Virus genome (UHGV): UHGV-0331123
Source: a virus
DNA length: 12,882 bases
Reading direction: 5' to 3' (one strand)
Shown here: positions 1 through 5,299 of the stretch, in pieces
How the letters are laid out: each line of letters opens with the position of its first letter
Numbering within the stretch: position 1 is the first letter of the stretch
Notes under the pieces: model-generated
Told to the model about the DNA's origin: nothing
Databases searched by the model: none
What the model saw: the letters and a program-made list of their open reading frames with translations, nothing else
Program-made: the position numbers and the translations under genes

Positions 1-378
1 CGCGAAGTGGTGAAACACTCCAGAAGCGGGGAATCTGTTATCAAGGAAGAGTGGGTGAAGGAACTGTGTCAGCATTGTCATGGTAAGGGAGAAGTCAGCA
101 CAGCGTGCAGAGGGTGTAAGGGTAAAGGTATTGTCCTGGATGAAAAAAGAACCCGGCTTCATGGCACGCCTGTTTATAAGGTTTGTGGGCGTTGCAATGG
201 AAACCGGTTTAGCCGTTTACCAACCACACTGGCGCGGCTTCATGTCCAGAAGCTGGTACCAGACCTGACGGATTATCAGTGGTACAAAGGATATGCAGAT
301 GTCATTGATAAACTGGTTACAAAGTGCTGGCAGGAAGAAGCATATGCAGAGATACAATTGAGAAAGGTGACAAGATAA
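1..378 (+). CDS. Late-gene antiterminator Q-like protein, 5'-partial (frame is open to the window edge); carries three CxxCxGxG zinc-finger repeats
   Basis: ORF open from position 1, stop at 376-378. Motifs CQHCHGKGE, CRGCKGKGI and CGRCNGNRF resemble DnaJ-type Cys-rich repeats. Sits immediately upstream of a promoter-like region, a terminator and the lysis cassette, which is the Q position in lambdoid phages. Assignment is positional plus motif, not a recognised sequence match. Confidence 0.45.
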   Translation, partial: REVVKHSRSGESVIKEEWVKELCQHCHGKGEVSTACRGCKGKGIVLDEKRTRLHGTPVYKVCGRCNGNRFSRLPTTLARLHVQKLVPDLTDYQWYKGYADVIDKLVTKCWQEEAYAEIQLRKVTR

Positions 379-509: not shown

Positions 510-631
510 GTACCTGTAAACTTGGTGCAGTACAGTAAACACGCTGGTGGTCGTGAATACTGACTTTTTATCTTGCTGGCTTTTTAGACAAGAGTTACTG
601 GTATGTCATGTTAACCAGAAGGGAAAAAGAC

Positions 632-835
632 ATGCTAAAACAGCAAGATATGACAGAAACCGCCGCCGCAGTCCTTCATTTCTTACCTGCTGACAAGTGG
701 GTAACGCCACGCATGATGACGAGAACTACCGGAGTAAGCGAAGCCCGGTGCCAGTTAATACTGACTCAGTTAGTTCTGGCGGGGCTGGCGAAGGATAACG
801 GCGGGTACGGGAATAAATTCAGACGCTGCCAGTAA
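632..835 (+). CDS. Small (67 aa) hypothetical protein, possible winged-helix DNA-binding protein (FaeA/PapI-like architecture)
   Basis: ATG at 632 preceded by AAGGGA; the track start at 608 has no Shine-Dalgarno. The segment VTPRMMTRTTGVSEARCQLILTQLVLAGL looks like a helix-turn-helix with recognition helix; resemblance to PapI/FaeA is from memory of family architecture only. Confidence 0.45.
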   Translation: MLKQQDMTETAAAVLHFLPADKWVTPRMMTRTTGVSEARCQLILTQLVLAGLAKDNGGYGNKFRRCQ

Positions 836-985
836 TGGCGGTTTCCTGCTGTGAAAATGGGCGGCTGGTGGGTGTTGGTAGCACCTGCCAGCCATTCGCT
901 CATGCTTACTGGTCACAAGCGAACCACGGCCCACTGCTTTAGCGCAAAAGCAGAGTGAGCCTACCAGAGTTACGCTTACTGATCC

Positions 986-2038
986 ATGAAAAATACTGTA
1001 AAAATAAACAGTGTTGATTTAATCAACGCTGATTGCCTGCATTTTATTCAGTCCCTGCCTGATGATTCCATTGACCTGATTGTTACCGATCCGCCGTACT
1101 TCAAGGTGAAACCCAACGGCTGGGACAATCAGTGGAAAGGGGACGAAGATTACCTTAAGTGGCTGGACCACTGTCTGGCCCAGTTCTGGCGGGTGTTAAA
1201 GCCTGCCGGAAGCCTTTACCTGTTCTGTGGGCATCGCCTGGCATCTGATATTGAGATCATGATGCGTGAACGTTTCAACGTGCTTAACCATATCATCTGG
1301 GCGAAGCCGTCCGGACGTTGGAATGGGTGTAATAAAGAAAGTCTGCGCGCATATTTTCCTGCCACAGAGCGCGTTCTGTTTGCTGAACATTACCAGGGGC
1401 CATATCGCGGCAAAAGTGACGGCTATGCGGCAAAAGAAAGGGAACTCAAACAGCACATAATGGCACCGCTGATATCGTATTTCAGGGATGCTCGTGCCGA
1501 ACTGGGTATAACGGCAAAACAAATTGCCGAAGCCACAGGTAAGAAAAATATGGTTTCCCACTGGTTTGGTGCCAGTCAGTGGCAGTTGCCGAATGAGGCT
1601 GACTATCGGAAGTTACAGGCACTGTTTTCCCGTATAGCGGCAGAGAAGTTTCAGGAACAACAACTGGAACAACCACACCACCAGCTGGTGGCATCTTATG
1701 ATTCACTGAATCGCAAATATTCTGAATTGCTGGATGAGTTTAAATCTCTCCGGCGCTATTTCTCCGTATCAGTCTCCGTGCCTTATACCGATGTCTGGAT
1801 GCATAAACCCGTTCAGTTCTACCCGGGTAAACATCCGTGTGAGAAACCTGCGGATATGCTCCGGCAAATAATCAATGCCAGTAGTCGACCTGGTGATCTG
1901 GTTGCTGATTTTTTTATGGGATCCGGTTCCACAATAAAAGCAGCAATGGCGCTGGGGCGTCGGGCCTTAGGTGTTGAGCTTGAGTCAGAGCGGTTTAACC
2001 AGACAGTGAAAGAGATAAACGAGCTGGTGGGGAAATAA
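986..2038 (+). CDS. DNA N6-adenine methyltransferase, beta class (N6_N4_Mtase family), phage-borne orphan
   Basis: 350 aa. Motif IV DPPY near the N-terminus (LIVTDPPYF) and motif I FxGxG near the C-terminus (DFFMGSGST); order IV then I defines the beta class. DPPY rather than SPPY favours N6-adenine. No cognate restriction gene is adjacent. Confidence 0.85.
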   Translation: MKNTVKINSVDLINADCLHFIQSLPDDSIDLIVTDPPYFKVKPNGWDNQWKGDEDYLKWLDHCLAQFWRVLKPAGSLYLFCGHRLASDIEIMMRERFNVLNHIIWAKPSGRWNGCNKESLRAYFPATERVLFAEHYQGPYRGKSDGYAAKERELKQHIMAPLISYFRDARAELGITAKQIAEATGKKNMVSHWFGASQWQLPNEADYRKLQALFSRIAAEKFQEQQLEQPHHQLVASYDSLNRKYSELLDEFKSLRRYFSVSVSVPYTDVWMHKPVQFYPGKHPCEKPADMLRQIINASSRPGDLVADFFMGSGSTIKAAMALGRRALGVELESERFNQTVKEINELVGK

Positions 2039-2044
2039 TCTGGT

Positions 2045-2066
2045 GGCCACGTAGGTGGCCTTTTTA
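2045..2066 (+). terminator. Rho-independent terminator between methyltransferase and holin
   Basis: Stem GGCCAC (2045-2050) / GTGGCC (2055-2060), loop GTAG, then TTTTTATTT. Confidence 0.5.
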
Positions 2067-2104
2067 TTTCCATTACACAGCACCCGCATCTGCGAGGTGG
2101 GGTT

Positions 2105-2320
2105 ATGAAATCCATGGATAAGTTAACAACGGGTGTCGCCTATGGCACCTCAGCAGGTAGTGCCGGGTACTGGTTTTTACAGTTGCTCGATAAAGTCACG
2201 CCCTCACAGTGGGCGGCAATAGGTGTGCTGGGTAGTCTGGTATTTGGCTTGCTGACGTATCTGACAAACCTTTATTTCAAGATTAAAGAAGACAAGCGTA
2301 AGGCTGCACGGGGAGAGTAA
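2105..2320 (+). CDS. Pinholin, phage 21 S-type, with dual-start motif (antiholin from Met1, holin from Met4)
   Basis: 71 aa beginning MKSMDK (ATG at 2105 and 2114). Closely matches my memory of phage 21 S21 ([45 protein letters not shown]). Two predicted TM helices; followed by a SAR endolysin, the expected partner. Confidence 0.9.
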
Positions 2321-2669: not shown

Positions 2670-2907
2670 TTTCACCAGCATATTTTTCTTCCAGTAATAC
2701 CGCCAGCCACTTGAAAGAATTTTGTTGTTGCTGGGACCATTTGGGGTTGAGTGATTCAAGCTGGAGCGATGCCAGTGTTGGTTGCATTTGTTCCTTGGGA
2801 ATTGAGAATGCCAGATATGAAAATGCGACAGTAAGGGCATTTACATCATCCCGAAGCTTGGAAATGCAGTCGAGCAACTCCTGTAGAGAAATGGTGCTAT
2901 TGTCCAT
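2635..2907 (-). CDS. Hypothetical protein (90 aa), convergent to the lysis genes
   Basis: ATG at 2907 on the minus strand with GAGAGG 7 nt upstream; the track start at 2913 is a TTG. Balanced, helical-looking composition and lower GC than its surroundings. Confidence 0.5.
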   Translation of the reverse strand: MDNSTISLQELLDCISKLRDDVNALTVAFSYLAFSIPKEQMQPTLASLQLESLNPKWSQQQQNSFKWLAVLLEEKYAGEITISAESSENQ

Positions 2908-3012
2908 AAACAATCCTCTCTATTGTATTTAACTATTCCTTGCCTGATTCAACAGGCCGGGACAGATAAACATATCCAGGGTTCAGAAACCGATAAATCC
3001 TGATAAATATCC

Positions 3013-3555
3013 ATGAACGTAAAAATCAGATACGGCCTGTCGGCTGCCGTTCTGGCACTGATTGCCGTCGGTGCGCCTGCGCCTGATATTCTCGACCAGT
3101 TTCTGAATGAAAAAGAAGGTAACCACACAACGGCATACCGCGATGGTTCCGGCATCTGGACCATCTGTCGGGGTGCCACGGTGGTGGATGGAAAACCCGT
3201 TTTTCCCGGTATGAAACTGTCGAAGGAAAAATGCGACCAGGTTAACGCCATTGAACGGGATAAGGCGCTGGCATGGGTGGAGCGCAATATTAAAGTGCCA
3301 CTGACCGAACCACAGAAAGCGGGTATAGCGTCATTTTGTCCCTATAACATTGGCCCCGGTAAGTGTTTCCCGTCGACGTTTTATAAGCGGCTGAATGCCG
3401 ATGATCGTAAGGGGGCATGCGAGGCGATTCGCTGGTGGATAAAAGATGGTGGGCGTGATTGCCGCCTGACAAAAGGGCAGAAGAATGGCTGTTATGGGCA
3501 GGTCGAGCGGCGCGATCAGGAAAGCGCACTGGCGTGCTGGGGGCTGGAGCAATGA
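3013..3555 (+). CDS. SAR (signal-anchor-release) endolysin, T4-lysozyme-like glycoside hydrolase, phage 21 R-type
   Basis: Gly/Ala-rich weakly hydrophobic N-terminal segment (GLSAAVLALIAVGAPAP) typical of a SAR domain. Catalytic triad at exactly E35, D44, T50 (EGNHTTAYRDGSGIWT), the spacing of R21 and T4 lysozyme. Stop overlaps the Rz start (ATGA). Confidence 0.9.
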   Translation: MNVKIRYGLSAAVLALIAVGAPAPDILDQFLNEKEGNHTTAYRDGSGIWTICRGATVVDGKPVFPGMKLSKEKCDQVNAIERDKALAWVERNIKVPLTEPQKAGIASFCPYNIGPGKCFPSTFYKRLNADDRKGACEAIRWWIKDGGRDCRLTKGQKNGCYGQVERRDQESALACWGLEQ

Positions 3556-4088
3556 AAATTAATCCGGATCTTATAGGCGTTGTCGTTATTGCTGGCCTTT
3601 CGGTCGCTCTCGTCAAGAGTTGCTCTCACGCCAGTAATCTTCAGAGCGATAACGACGTTCTGCGAAGTGACAACTCTATGCTGGGGCAGGTAATCGCCAC
3701 CCAGGCATTCAACTTCAATCGATTCAATCAGGTTGCAGAACATGCCAACAGTCTTAACTCCCTGATCGACACCAGCACCGAAAAAACCGTAATCGAATAC
3801 CGGGAGATTCTCCGCCGTGAAAAAACCTGTGATCTGCCTGTTCCTGCTGATATCGCTGGTGGGTTGCTCGAATACACGTACCGTTTACGTGCCAGCGCCA
3901 TGCACACCGATACCGGCAGACCTAATGAAGCCTATGATCGTACCGCTACCACCAGCTCAATGACCTACTGCCAAGCTGTCTTGTGGATTAAGCCGCTACT
4001 GGCGTTGATAGAAAAAGGAAATAATAATTTTTCGAGTATTCGTGAAATTGATGAGTTGCGTTACAGACCATCTGAGCATGGCCAGTAA
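3552..4088 (+). CDS. Rz-like inner-membrane spanin (i-spanin)
   Basis: ATG at 3552 overlaps the endolysin stop; N-terminal TM helix (LIGVVVIAGLSVALV) then a periplasmic helical domain; contains an embedded +1-frame lipoprotein ORF. The C-terminal roughly 30 codons lie in AT-rich DNA. Confidence 0.8.
   Translation: MKINPDLIGVVVIAGLSVALVKSCSHASNLQSDNDVLRSDNSMLGQVIATQAFNFNRFNQVAEHANSLNSLIDTSTEKTVIEYREILRREKTCDLPVPADIAGGLLEYTYRLRASAMHTDTGRPNEAYDRTATTSSMTYCQAVLWIKPLLALIEKGNNNFSSIREIDELRYRPSEHGQ
3817..3963 (+). CDS. Rz1-like outer-membrane lipoprotein spanin (o-spanin), embedded in the +1 frame of Rz
   Basis: Translation by hand: (GTG)KKPVICLFLLISLVGCSNTRTVYVPAPCTPIPADLMKPMIVPLPPAQ. Signal peptide with lipobox LVGC and a Pro-rich mature part, as in lambda Rz1. 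Start is GTG with GGGAGA upstream. Too short for the ORF track. Confidence 0.65.
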   Translation: MKKPVICLFLLISLVGCSNTRTVYVPAPCTPIPADLMKPMIVPLPPAQ

Positions 4089-4165
4089 GGTTGCAGGAAA
4101 TTTAAAATCTGGCGATGAAATTTAATATTAGAAATTCATTGCCTAGTGAGATTAATAATGGGCAT

Positions 4166-4203
4166 CCCTTTGTGACGATAAGCTTTAACACATTCACAAA
4201 GGG
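4166..4203. terminator. 10-bp perfect hairpin between the Rz stop and the 3' end of the minus-strand moron; possible bidirectional terminator
   Basis: CCCTTTGTGA (4166-4175) and TCACAAAGGG (4194-4203) flank an 18-nt loop and are followed by ATATTTAATAT on the + strand. No clean U-tract on either side, so terminator function is uncertain. Confidence 0.35.
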
Positions 4204-4256
4204 ATATTTAATATAGGGTGGTTAATTCCCACTTGCTGTGGTGTTTAGGGGGTAAT

Positions 4257-4949
4257 TCAAATCTTATCTAACTCATTATAGGCTTCGATAATAAAAATTC
4301 TGATTTTAATAAGGCATGATTCAATGAAAGGAATTACTTCATGGTCATTCCCATGGAATCTTATTTTTTTCTCTTCGGTAATGACTATGTTTAAAGGTAC
4401 ACCATTACCACTTCTTTGTAATTTCCCATTTTCGAAAGTAAAGTCTTCTAATTTTTTGCCATTGATGTGGTTGTTTTTAAAGAGAATTTTTGCTGAGCTT
4501 CCTGCTGTGATTAAACCAAAACCATCTACGCTCACACTTAGGTCTTTAACAGAACTCTCTTCTCTTAAGGGGATTGGTTGTCTGTGCTTTACTTCATTAG
4601 TGAGATTACACATCATTTCCAACCAAGATTCGCCAGTGTGATAATCCTGTATAGAAGTAAAAATTTTATATAATGGAGAAGATGATGGTGGGTTTATTTT
4701 TAGCGTCTTTGAGAAAAATTTATCAATAAACTCTCTTTTTCCGTAAGGGAAATATATTTTGGGGCGCTCATCATTACTGCGTGGAGAAATATATTTATCA
4801 TAGGTATCATTAGCGAGATACTCTAAGGAACTTCGTAAGTTTTCCAAAATAGCTTTGACTTTTACAGGCTTGATATGCTGTGTCTGTCTCATTATGTCAA
4901 GACTTTCTTCAACTTCTTGCAATAAGTCCAACGAGCCTTCTCTAGACAT
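4257..4949 (-). CDS. Hypothetical 230-aa protein on an AT-rich moron at the lambda bor position; candidate lysogenic-conversion or anti-phage gene
   Basis: Minus-strand ORF with strong Shine-Dalgarno (AAGGAG about 10 nt upstream of ATG at 4949). GC is visibly much lower than the flanking phage genes and it runs opposite to the late operon, with AT-rich promoter-like DNA upstream (4950-5100). No catalytic motif I can name. Confidence 0.7.
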   Translation of the reverse strand: MSREGSLDLLQEVEESLDIMRQTQHIKPVKVKAILENLRSSLEYLANDTYDKYISPRSNDERPKIYFPYGKREFIDKFFSKTLKINPPSSSPLYKIFTSIQDYHTGESWLEMMCNLTNEVKHRQPIPLREESSVKDLSVSVDGFGLITAGSSAKILFKNNHINGKKLEDFTFENGKLQRSGNGVPLNIVITEEKKIRFHGNDHEVIPFIESCLIKIRIFIIEAYNELDKI

Positions 4950-5299
4950 ACAGGTAATTCTCCTTTATGAATTTTCAACATGTTATAACTAATAATATAT
5001 TTATCATATAACTGTATGAATAAATTGTGAGATTAGTAATGCAAGTTTCTATCCATAGTGTTCTCTAAGTACCCGCTTCCATCATGTTGTTACGGACGGT
5101 ATGGCTAAAACAAAGCACCTGAAGTTAAACGTTCTGAACTTTATGCTCGTTGAGCATATGAATTATCTGTAACCCGATGCGCTGGTTGTGGTTCACATTG
5201 ATGGTCGTAATCAGCAGCGGTGGTGCCTGATGGCATGCAACTTCTTACTTATAAAACTTCGTATGGAATTGTTGCCATAACGAGCCCAGCTTAGCAGTT

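Follow-up and report, generated by a model that had tools for sequence, protein, structure and literature searches.

The non-specific adenine methyltransferases M.EcoGII and M.EcoGI are encoded by prophages of E. coli O104:H4 strain C227-11 (Murray et al. 2018, PMC5778455). Whatever the sequence context, adenine is methylated by M.EcoGII, on double-stranded DNA, single-stranded DNA and RNA. Its prophage gene is silent in the lysogen, whose chromosome is unmethylated, and slows growth when expressed from a plasmid; the proposed role of the enzyme is to shield phage DNA from restriction (PMC5778455). Non-specific adenine methylation has also been established by experiment for the ancestral reconstruction Anc291 and for SUPREM (PMC11551740), and for PhiOS31_p25 and ARM81ld_p56 (PMC7556043). 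The present analysis concerns a stretch of 12,882 nucleotides (nt) of the virus genome UHGV-0331123 (the window), in which a methylase of the same family is preceded by a gene for a small winged-helix protein, and in which the 150-nt spacer between the two genes holds a structured non-coding element.

The classic means of locking the translation of a toxic DNA-modification gene is a regulator of the Com type, and cis-antisense locks are known from symE/symR (a type I toxin-antitoxin pair linked to the SOS response), sar/ant of phage P22 and OOP/cII of lambda. LexA is involved in the control of symE, and its involvement has been reported for the OOP promoter. The com-mom system of Mu and the Com-linked non-specific methylases of Mu-like prophages shield phage DNA by a late, host-toxic and broad modification of adenine (Drozdz et al. 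2012, PMC3299994). In a Stx2a phage, the adenine methylase M.EcoPA8orf6770P follows a small winged-helix gene with a terminator upstream (Gong et al. 2024, PMC10810198), and the small protein, PNB-2, co-purifies 1:1 with the methylase and switches its activity from non-specific to 16S rRNA (PMC10810198).

The methylase of the present locus and its position in the late operon are already known and are not new. The survival of a host that carries such a promiscuous toxic enzyme has so far been described merely as a matter of the gene being 'transcriptionally silent'. M.EcoGII-type enzymes are widely used tools, in chromatin footprinting, MadID and RNA labelling, and the cassette (positions 485-2070) is present in about one quarter of the complete E. 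coli genomes (1443 of 5426) and in many Stx2 phages immediately precedes the toxin genes. The original prediction for this locus dealt with the two genes and overlooked the spacer, which surpasses the rest of the interval both in its conservation and in its unusual character. What is added here is the identity of the methylase as a member of the M.EcoGII family, the recognition of the small gene as an optional accessory from a narrow family, and the recognition of the spacer as a structured element with a LexA-like box. The element, the box and the missing ribosome-binding site of the methylase together offer a testable mechanism for the silence of the gene and the timing of its expression.

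Conservation and extent of the structured element

The small gene and the methylase are separated by a gap of 150 nt (836-985), and this gap contains an element of three hairpins, placed at 852-985. Its helices are formed by 863-874 with 882-893, by 895-904 with 914-923, and by 928-934 with 955-961, the last enclosing an inner helix of 935-940 with 947-952. In an alignment of nine phages, the region 852-985 is more conserved than its coding flanks, where identity drops to 48% for the small protein and to 65% for the methylase. The block AATGGGCGGCTGG is invariant and stands at 129-131 nt from the methylase ATG in every phage of this alignment.

Of 80 species-level loci, 37 carry the element according to the covariance model, as do all four distant phages searched (N15, VHML, OS31 and phiARM81ld). 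Beyond the window there are 41 plus-strand matches, all of which adjoin either a methylase or the Com-like open reading frame (ORF) in front of it. The element is kept where the methylase is just 53-65% identical, as in Providencia, Proteus, Yersinia, N15, VHML and Aeromonas. Compensatory double changes are found at 31 of the 36 modelled pairs, and 89% of the alignment cells pair, versus 34-43% with the partner slid. Covariation scores 0.375, as against at most 0.078 for the slid controls, and none of 500 shuffles scores as high; the alignment was fitted to the covariance model, which inflates such scores, but the margin is large.

The conservation at the nucleotide level continues into the methylase gene. 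Given the same amino acid, codon identity is 0.80 in codons 1-8 and 0.63 in codons 9-16, compared with 0.43 gene-wide (range 0.26-0.54). Because synonymous variation is suppressed in codons 1-16 (986-1033), the element is taken to reach approximately 1033, where it overlaps the coding sequence. The whole structured element thus spans about 852-1033, some 180 nt, and covers the start of the methylase.

It is conceivable that the spacer is conserved only by hitch-hiking, that is, by recent spread of the cassette together with the ordinary constraint on a translation start, and that there is no functional element. Recent spread would predict the 99-100% identity of the spacer in 80 E. coli loci, and the conservation of codons 1-16 may be explained in part by constraints on the protein N-terminus and on initiation. 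It would not predict the persistence of the element across genera at 53-65% methylase identity, the maintenance of the helices through double changes, or the fixed distance to the start codon. This explanation is therefore considered very improbable.

The surroundings of the element vary among the loci. A strong plus-strand terminator stands 5-12 nt upstream of it in most of them. In Aeromonas, Vibrio and Pseudaeromonas, the element abuts not the methylase start but the start codon of an ORF that resembles the zinc-finger protein Com of Mu; such an ORF is absent from the window. The Com-like ORFs, with the pattern CxxC...CxxC (MNLNELRCGNCSRKLA...CPRCK), are found at 2362-2577 of locus L091, 2275-2547 of L157, 2352-2468 of L141 and 2304-2441 of L144. 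In Aeromonas and Pseudaeromonas, the Com-like ORF overlaps the methylase start, and in the two Vibrio loci it stops shortly before the aligned part of the methylase.

The element does not correspond to any described RNA in the sources searched. Rfam 15 returned nothing on either strand within 836-1033 of the window at E-values (E) up to 1, and nothing on either strand at the element in 11 diverse loci at E up to 0.5. Among 60 phage records that hold the element, most have no feature there, a few list a 'hypothetical protein', and none lists an RNA. Literature searches by topic and by sequence string found no paper that describes it; the single string match in a phage paper (PMC6328086) is, to judge by the title, coincidental and probably a primer. 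A loose DNA-pattern scan of viral contigs for the element listed 80 stretches, all of which were chance matches as judged by the covariance model. The spacer is, then, a widespread structured element that is not described as such in Rfam, the records examined or the papers searched.

A leader peptide was also considered, as an ORF runs through the element to the ATGA of the methylase in some homologues. It was rejected as non-coding, because the corresponding frame of the window has a TAG at 879-881 and no start codon, and because the homologues differ by 1-nt insertions and deletions.

The translation start of the methylase has its own peculiarities. By inspection, no canonical Shine-Dalgarno sequence precedes the ATG. 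The sequence UGAUC at -6 to -2 is conserved and, also by inspection only, is complementary to GAUCA at the 3' end of 16S rRNA. Within the conserved TGATC lies a GATC (Dam) site at 981-984, 2 nt upstream of the ATG, which is kept in most homologues.

A LexA operator has the form CTGT-N8-ACAG with an AT-rich spacer, TACTGT(AT)4ACAGTA. A palindrome resembling it, TACTGTAAAAATAAACAGTG, occupies 994-1013 of the window, over methylase codons 4-9, with its core CTGT-N8-ACAG at 996-1011. It is the sole CTGT-N8-ACAG of the window, in which 0.15 would be expected by chance, and it agrees with the E. coli LexA consensus TACTGTATATATATACAGTA at 16 of 20 positions. The form CTG-N10-CAG is kept in 29 of 34 diverse loci by way of synonymous positions. 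As RNA, TACTGTAAAAATAAACAGTG would form a hairpin of 8 base pairs (bp) with a folding energy of -7.5 kcal/mol (z -3.8). The likeness of this box to a LexA operator suggests a tie to the SOS response.

Strand of the element

Most comparisons across the family favour the minus strand. The core of the element folds to the lower minimum free energy when read as the minus strand in 38 of the 41 sequences (mean gap 6.6 kcal/mol), and when read as the plus strand in three. After normalisation by shuffling, the mean z is -4.1 for the minus strand and -2.9 for the plus strand, with the minus strand lower in 34 of 41. When one and the same alignment is mirrored and folded with RNAalifold, the minus strand yields -39.3 kcal/mol with 30 pairs, 26 of them covarying, while the plus strand yields -23.0 kcal/mol with 18 pairs, 14 of them covarying. 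Independent MAFFT alignments concur with the strand result of the mirrored alignment.

The single helices of the structural model (designated P1 to P4) are informative. The minus strand gives the more stable helix P3 in 40 of 41 sequences and the plus strand in one, because positions that are A-C mismatches when read on the plus strand become G-U pairs when read on the minus strand, so that a helix of 9-10 bp forms there only. Helix P4 is more stable on the minus strand in 33 of 41 sequences and on the plus strand in eight, and a conserved A-C mismatch on the plus strand is likewise a G-U pair on the minus strand. Counting of wobbles on the first structural model was ambiguous overall (68 G-U against 81 A-C without P1) until the counts were split by helix.

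These results are consistent with a minus-strand RNA that is antisense to the 5' untranslated region of the methylase. The window holds a possible promoter for such an RNA, the best candidate being TCAACA-N16-TATTTT on the minus strand at 1017-990. The LexA-like box fills the spacer of this weak candidate, the -10 hexamer of which is not conserved. In recA, a LexA box likewise fills the promoter spacer. A second candidate for the -35 hexamer, the minus-strand TTGATT or TTGACT that results from the conserved (I/V)NAD codons, stands 14 or 20 nt from possible -10 hexamers.

Several observations weigh against the antisense reading. Helix P2 is ambiguous, being better on the minus strand in 24 of 41 sequences and on the plus strand in 17. 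The window sequence 846-1000 taken by itself folds slightly better on the plus strand (-56.9 kcal/mol, z -3.0) than on the minus strand (-53.6 kcal/mol, z -2.1), and the shortened spacers of Xenorhabdus also favour the plus strand. No canonical conserved sigma-70 promoter can be placed on the minus strand in the window and its homologues, the critical A of the -10 hexamer in TCAACA-N16-TATTTT is a G in about half of the homologues, and the U-run at the minus-strand 3' end is weak and poorly conserved. Moreover, an antisense promoter repressed by LexA would be off in the lysogen, which makes it a poor fit to a simple role in silencing the gene there.

Some of these observations would be expected if the element were instead a leader of the plus-strand late mRNA that occludes the weak methylase start and is opened by the winged-helix protein, a Com-like protein, S-adenosylmethionine or the ribosome after late transcription, with no antisense RNA involved. 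The leader region would be transcribed within the late mRNA in any case. In a consensus fold of nine sequences, RNAalifold pairs AUGGG (857-861), in a predicted long-range helix, with a UCCAU that overlaps the start codon; the E. coli type of P2 has G-U pairs on the plus strand; and com/mom of Mu and the Com-like ORFs of Aeromonas and Vibrio show that genes of this kind can carry translational locks on the sense strand. On the other hand, the long helix P3 is formed solely on the minus strand, P4 has its mismatch on the plus strand, and both the consensus energy and the number of pairs are clearly better on the minus strand in the same alignment. The helix at the start codon is nearly invariant, with few compensatory changes, and no riboswitch family is matched. 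Since the evidence of the family and that of the single window are split, a minus-strand RNA is regarded as the likely form of the element, and a sense leader as an appreciable but rather unlikely alternative.

The methyltransferase and the small winged-helix protein

The methylase gene (986-2038, plus strand) encodes 350 amino acids (aa) and matches PF01555 end to end (E 2.2e-42; 145.9 bits against a cut-off of 26.7). The motif TDPPYF occupies residues 34-39 (DPPY 35-38) and FFMGSGST residues 321-328 (FMGSGST 322-328), and the order of DPPY before FxGxG places the enzyme in the beta class. PADLOC assigns it to MTase_II (E 3e-152). Over the full length, it is 81% identical to M.EcoGII (349 aligned positions, two gap positions) and 89% identical to Anc291; both reference sequences were taken from a machine-read PDF of Supplementary Table S1 of PMC11551740, with a few reading errors. 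The homology to the M.EcoGII family spans the helical target-recognition domain (M.EcoGII residues 160-237). Identity is 100% to the methylase of phage cdtI, 64% to PhiOS31_p25 and 53% to ARM81ld_p56. No solved structure of M.EcoGII was found in the copy of the PDB searched, in which the best sequence matches are distant beta-class methylases.

Because characterised non-specific relatives bracket the window methylase at 53-89% identity, methylation of adenine irrespective of sequence context is strongly favoured for it. The original prediction had expected a discrete methylated motif; this expectation runs counter to the family, in which every characterised member is context-independent. Its description of the gene as an orphan beta-class DPPY N6-adenine methyltransferase is borne out by PF01555, by the order of the motifs and by the neighbouring genes. 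Neither in the window nor in 80 near-identical viral loci and eleven annotated phage contexts does a restriction or nuclease gene adjoin the methylase, a result that applies to adjacent genes only, since a distant nuclease elsewhere in the genome would lie outside the reach of the window. The lack of a nuclease neighbour in any context examined indicates an orphan enzyme and not one half of a restriction-modification pair, and the original prediction was right in this respect also.

The small gene may be read as 608-835 (75 aa) or 632-835 (67 aa). The start at 632 is supported by the N-terminus MLKQQDMTETA, which is invariant in 22 diverse homologues, by the presence of the 67-aa form on at least 1000 contigs as against 292 for the 75-aa form, and by AAGGGA 9-14 nt upstream of the ATG. 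The product belongs to PHROG 331 (phrog_331, E 3e-26) and is a stand-alone protein encoded on the plus strand. With a median ratio of nonsynonymous to synonymous substitution (dN/dS) of 0.30 in 57 pairs, the gene is real and under purifying selection. The possibility that the small ORF is spurious, raised with the original prediction, is countered by this value and by the conserved N-terminus.

[quoted passage not shown] The core CQLILT of helix 3, the recognition helix, is invariant; variation and recombination affect helices 1 and 2 and the wing. Among the fold matches, the Zalpha domain of ADAR1 (1qbj) comes first, with a template-modelling (TM) score of 0.85, a root-mean-square deviation (rmsd) of 1.1 A over 64 columns and 16% identity; IclR, TrmBL2 and MarR-type domains follow, with sequence identities of 10-25%. 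PefI (2jt1), a homologue of PapI, ranks 32nd in the fold search, with a TM score of 0.61 and an rmsd of 3.9 A. A Pfam scan at E up to 0.1 gave only MarR_2 (E 0.058; 14 bits against a cut-off of 27), and no NCBIfam model was matched. Relatives at about 50% identity bear the NCBI name 'TrmB family transcriptional regulator'.

More specific assignments did not hold up. In Zalpha domains, the contacts are made by Asn and Tyr in helix 3 and by Pro-Pro-x-Trp in the wing; by inspection, these residues are absent from helix 3 and the wing of the small protein (EARCQLILTQLVLAGLAKDNGGYGNKFRRCQ). The resemblance to PapI and FaeA (PF04703) that had been put forward is without a Pfam match and amounts to a generic likeness of fold, and an assignment to a defence system failed in the PADLOC scan.

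The family is narrow. Among 1.84 billion proteins it has 97 representatives, nearly all of them small and none of them fused to a methylase. In phage genomes, the small gene is found solely about 140-190 nt upstream of an M.EcoGII-family methylase (among the listed records present in both searches). The reverse does not apply: of the 37 species-level loci in which the element lies beside the methylase, about 20 are without the small gene, among them loci with methylases about 80% identical. In Xenorhabdus and Photorhabdus, the small gene is kept and the spacer is shortened. The small protein appears as an optional accessory of the cassette and, from its distribution in sequence searches, as a member of a phage-only family.

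Some further observations concern the small gene. The first 11 codons and about 30 nt upstream of them (600-660; GTATGTCAYGTTAAC...ATGCTAAAACAGCAAGATATGAC) are nearly invariant as DNA across genera, which hints at a second, overlapping signal at the nucleotide level. In phage N15, the product of gene 51 (gp51; L090 2006-2233, 75 aa in the record) matches the profile of the winged-helix family weakly (E 7e-4), as does a gp51-type ORF in an N15-like element of Pseudocitrobacter (L142 2006-2233, E 8e-5). N15 gene 51 is located just upstream of the annotated late promoter and terminator, and gp51 may be a distant homologue of the small protein in a different position.

Two explanations centre on the small protein. 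It may be a subunit of the methylase that steers its choice of substrate, for example to rRNA, in which case the pair would be a host-modulating holoenzyme without an anti-restriction role. The pairing of PNB-2 with M.EcoPA8orf6770P from another Stx phage is a precedent (PMC10810198; bioRxiv 10.1101/2023.09.20.558713), M.EcoGII also acts on RNA, the small gene occurs in phages beside M.EcoGII-family methylases alone, and helix 3 of the small protein is invariant. The precedent is not matched by homology, however, as neither PNB-2 and the small protein nor the two methylases resemble each other in sequence. M.EcoGII and its relatives need no partner for full activity, no fusions of the two proteins are seen, and loci with closely related methylases dispense with the small gene. 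A holoenzyme is therefore judged improbable. The other explanation, raised as one alternative in the original prediction, is a sequence-specific orphan methylase that acts with a regulator like PapI or FaeA in a methylation-dependent epigenetic switch. The winged-helix fold, with PefI among its many matches, and the conserved GATC just upstream of the methylase start would suit such a switch. It is hard to reconcile with the non-specific activity of all tested family members, with the optional small gene and the lack of a FaeA/PapI family match, and with a gene that is gated by a terminator and presumably silent in the lysogen, the very state in which a heritable switch would have to act. Of the explanations considered, a switch has the least to recommend it, and it is rated as barely credible.

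Late-operon context, proposed mechanism and known systems

The window represents the late region of a lambdoid prophage, as judged from gene order and from matches to Pfam and PHROG profiles. It opens with the C-terminal part of a zinc-finger type Q antiterminator (7-378, plus strand; the gene is truncated by the window start), which matches PF03589 (E 1.2e-30) and phrog_127 (E 1e-48) and shares 97-100% identity with Q as annotated in phages Ayreon and SfV. The putative late promoter pR' and the Q-loading site are placed at 379-481 on the plus strand, in the stretch from the Q stop codon to the terminator. As hexamers for pR', TTGCGT (410-415) and TAAGAT (433-438) fit best; they are separated by 17 nt, agree with the consensus at only 7 of 12 positions and were not flagged in a promoter scan of the window. 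A tR'-like intrinsic terminator follows on the plus strand at 482-509, with a GC-rich hairpin (482-507; -13.9 kcal/mol, z -3.55) and U7. Beyond the methylase, a second plus-strand intrinsic terminator at 2045-2066, with a hairpin at 2045-2060 (-12.3 kcal/mol) and U5, closes the cassette. A terminator consensus scan of the window flagged the downstream but not the upstream one, and both are annotated in the near-identical records of Ayreon and SfV. The bracketing of the cassette by terminators, as originally predicted, is thus upheld.

The right border of the cargo site is the first lysis gene, an S21-type holin (2105-2320, plus strand; PF04971, E 2e-35), which is followed by a DUF1327 gene, a lysozyme of the signal-anchor-release (SAR) type and Rz/Rz1. 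With Q, the terminator, the holin, the SAR-type lysozyme and Rz/Rz1 in place, and with the promoter inferred, the layout is that of a Q-dependent late operon. Further downstream lie a low-GC island with a 230-aa minus-strand ORF and then the terminase, portal and protease-capsid genes. No tRNA or tmRNA gene is present within the window.

The cassette behaves as a mobile unit. Its left edge is at approximately 485, and in 80 near-identical viral loci the unit from there to the downstream terminator shifts as a block among different Q genes and different holins; in other phages, too, the same cassette precedes different types of holin. Over the interval 380-2110, identity is 96-99% with phages Ayreon, mEp460, cdtI and SfV (orf47/orf48), and it stands at about 90% with Stx2c phages. 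The methylase stands at the head of the late operon in every phage examined, just upstream of the lysis genes or of stx: in lambdoid phages, it lies between Q with the terminator and the holin, and in N15, Serratia OS31, Aeromonas phiARM81ld and Vibrio VHML it comes just before the lysis genes. The claim that the slot between Q and the lysis genes is a cargo site is in agreement with Stx2a and Stx2e phages, in which the same pair lies directly upstream of tRNA genes and stx2.

In two such phages, WGPS2 (Stx2a; L083 3001-6031) and P27 (Stx2e; L084 3001-6027), the unit of winged-helix gene, element and methylase is directly upstream of the tRNA genes ileZ/argN/argO and of stx2AB, and from this adjacency stx2 is expected to be co-transcribed downstream of the cassette. 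Phage Ayreon (L001 2629-3312) and likewise mEp460 have an extra insertion of about 680 bp between the late terminator and the winged-helix gene, with a 141-aa ORF (annotated as 'porin' in mEp460) and its own terminator, that is, a second moron stacked there. In Hafnia psychrotolerans (L118 3782-3928), a Sib type I antitoxin RNA (RF00113, 105 bits) is located about 250 nt downstream of the methylase homologue. Serratia phage OS31 has a weak, sub-threshold match to isrK (RF01394; L092 2215-2276, 27 bits, E 0.09) just upstream of the element; IsrK is a small RNA of Gifsy-1 that lies near the late promoter.

Other parts of the window also deserve mention. The region 401-511 would give the expected short transcript from the late promoter to the terminator, the counterpart of the 6S RNA of lambda and of StxS of Stx phages (PMC7547250); Rfam gives weak attenuator-like matches there, to Trp_leader and Leu_leader, with E of about 0.03. 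The DUF1327 gene occupies 2325-2669, and the next 340 nt or so (2670-3012), between holin and endolysin, contain no convincing plus-strand gene and are overlapped by a minus-strand ORF of 92 aa (2635-2913). The endolysin (3013-3555) has the hydrophobic N-terminus MNVKIRYGLSAAVLALIAVGAPAP, which, together with the S21-type holin, suggests a lysis system of pinholin and SAR endolysin. The low-GC island (4000-5200; 34% as compared with about 50% in its flanks) lies between the lysis genes and the terminase. Its minus-strand ORF of 230 aa (4257-4949) belongs to PHROG 13652, of unknown function (E 4e-159), and its product has no Pfam, NCBIfam or PADLOC match; it looks like a moron expressed in the lysogen, possibly for defence or exclusion.

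The explanation that best accommodates these results, and one that is considered probable as a whole, is a late mobile methylase cassette with an additional lock of the antisense type. Because the gene lies downstream of the late terminator and the cassette is bracketed by terminators, its anatomy implies that transcription of the methylase would require read-through by Q-modified RNA polymerase, late after induction; in this, the dependence on Q antitermination that had been predicted follows from the terminators on both sides. The enzyme would then modify adenines throughout the replicating phage DNA, and the progeny would be broadly resistant to restriction in the next host, as has been proposed in the literature by analogy with Mom of Mu. 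The protection of progeny suggested in the original prediction matches this role, proposed for the family (PMC5778455). Constitutive expression of the methylase would be harmful, and a second layer of control would operate at the start of the gene. There, a small RNA from the minus strand, complementary in its 5' part to the translation start of the methylase, would block the translation of stray read-through transcripts until the late transcripts swamp it. The winged-helix protein would most likely bind either the element or the methylase and tune expression or the choice of substrate. The element, in this scheme, probably keeps the toxic methylase locked.

Parts of the scheme are less secure than others. 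The anti-restriction role is an assumption of the literature for these phages, the non-specific methylation of the cassette is inferred from homologues, and the function proposed for the small protein, which is absent at many loci that keep the element and the methylase, is a guess. A more far-reaching proposition, which is put forward only tentatively, is that the spacer represents an undescribed family of cis-antisense RNAs of about 150 nt and three hairpins, possibly under SOS control, that act as a lock of the type I toxin-antitoxin kind on the M.EcoGII family in temperate phages of Enterobacterales, Vibrionaceae and Aeromonadaceae, with the winged-helix protein as a dedicated partner of the element or the enzyme. 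If the element is indeed an antisense RNA, it would be a widespread new RNA family in phage biology, and the logic of type I toxin-antitoxin systems and of com-mom would extend to beta-class methylases.

Compared with M.EcoGII, the window methylase has the same architecture, with an N-terminal DPPY, a central helical target-recognition domain and a C-terminal FxGxG in 349-350 aa, and shares the prophage location, the predicted silence in the lysogen and the proposed anti-restriction role. It is, however, a different allele that is nearer to Anc291, and its activity is predicted. The published work on M.EcoGII contains no description of an upstream winged-helix gene, a structured spacer or a LexA-like box.

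The pair of M.EcoPA8orf6770P and PNB-2 is similar in arrangement but differs in size (208 and 143 aa, versus 350 and 67 aa here), and homology of the two pairs was rejected for want of any BLASTP similarity. The former pair is located in the early-left region and is reportedly constitutive, whereas the pair of the window belongs to a Q-dependent late operon. With the Zalpha, IclR, TrmB, MarR and PapI-PefI domains, the small protein has in common its size and the topology of three helices and two strands.

The lock proposed here, by RNA structure at the start codon, resembles the translational lock of Mu com-mom, and the relatives of the cassette in Aeromonas and Vibrio have a Com-like ORF between the element and the methylase. 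Unlike the Mu system, the window has no Com-like protein, and its methylase is of the beta class and is neither a Mom nor an alpha-class enzyme of the kind found in Mu-like prophages. The element, of about 150 nt with three hairpins, is also far larger than the target of Com and probably acts on the opposite strand. The likeness to symE/symR, sar/ant and OOP/cII is that of a structured RNA, here a candidate, opposite the start of a harmful gene in a mobile or SOS-related context. The candidate RNA would be larger and more structured than SymR, Sar and OOP and has no relationship to them in sequence or in Rfam, and the LexA-like box would lie on the putative antisense promoter and not on the promoter of the toxic gene. 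The element, the LexA-like box and the accessory are, together with the M.EcoGII-family methylase, a variation on the theme of com-mom and of antisense locks.

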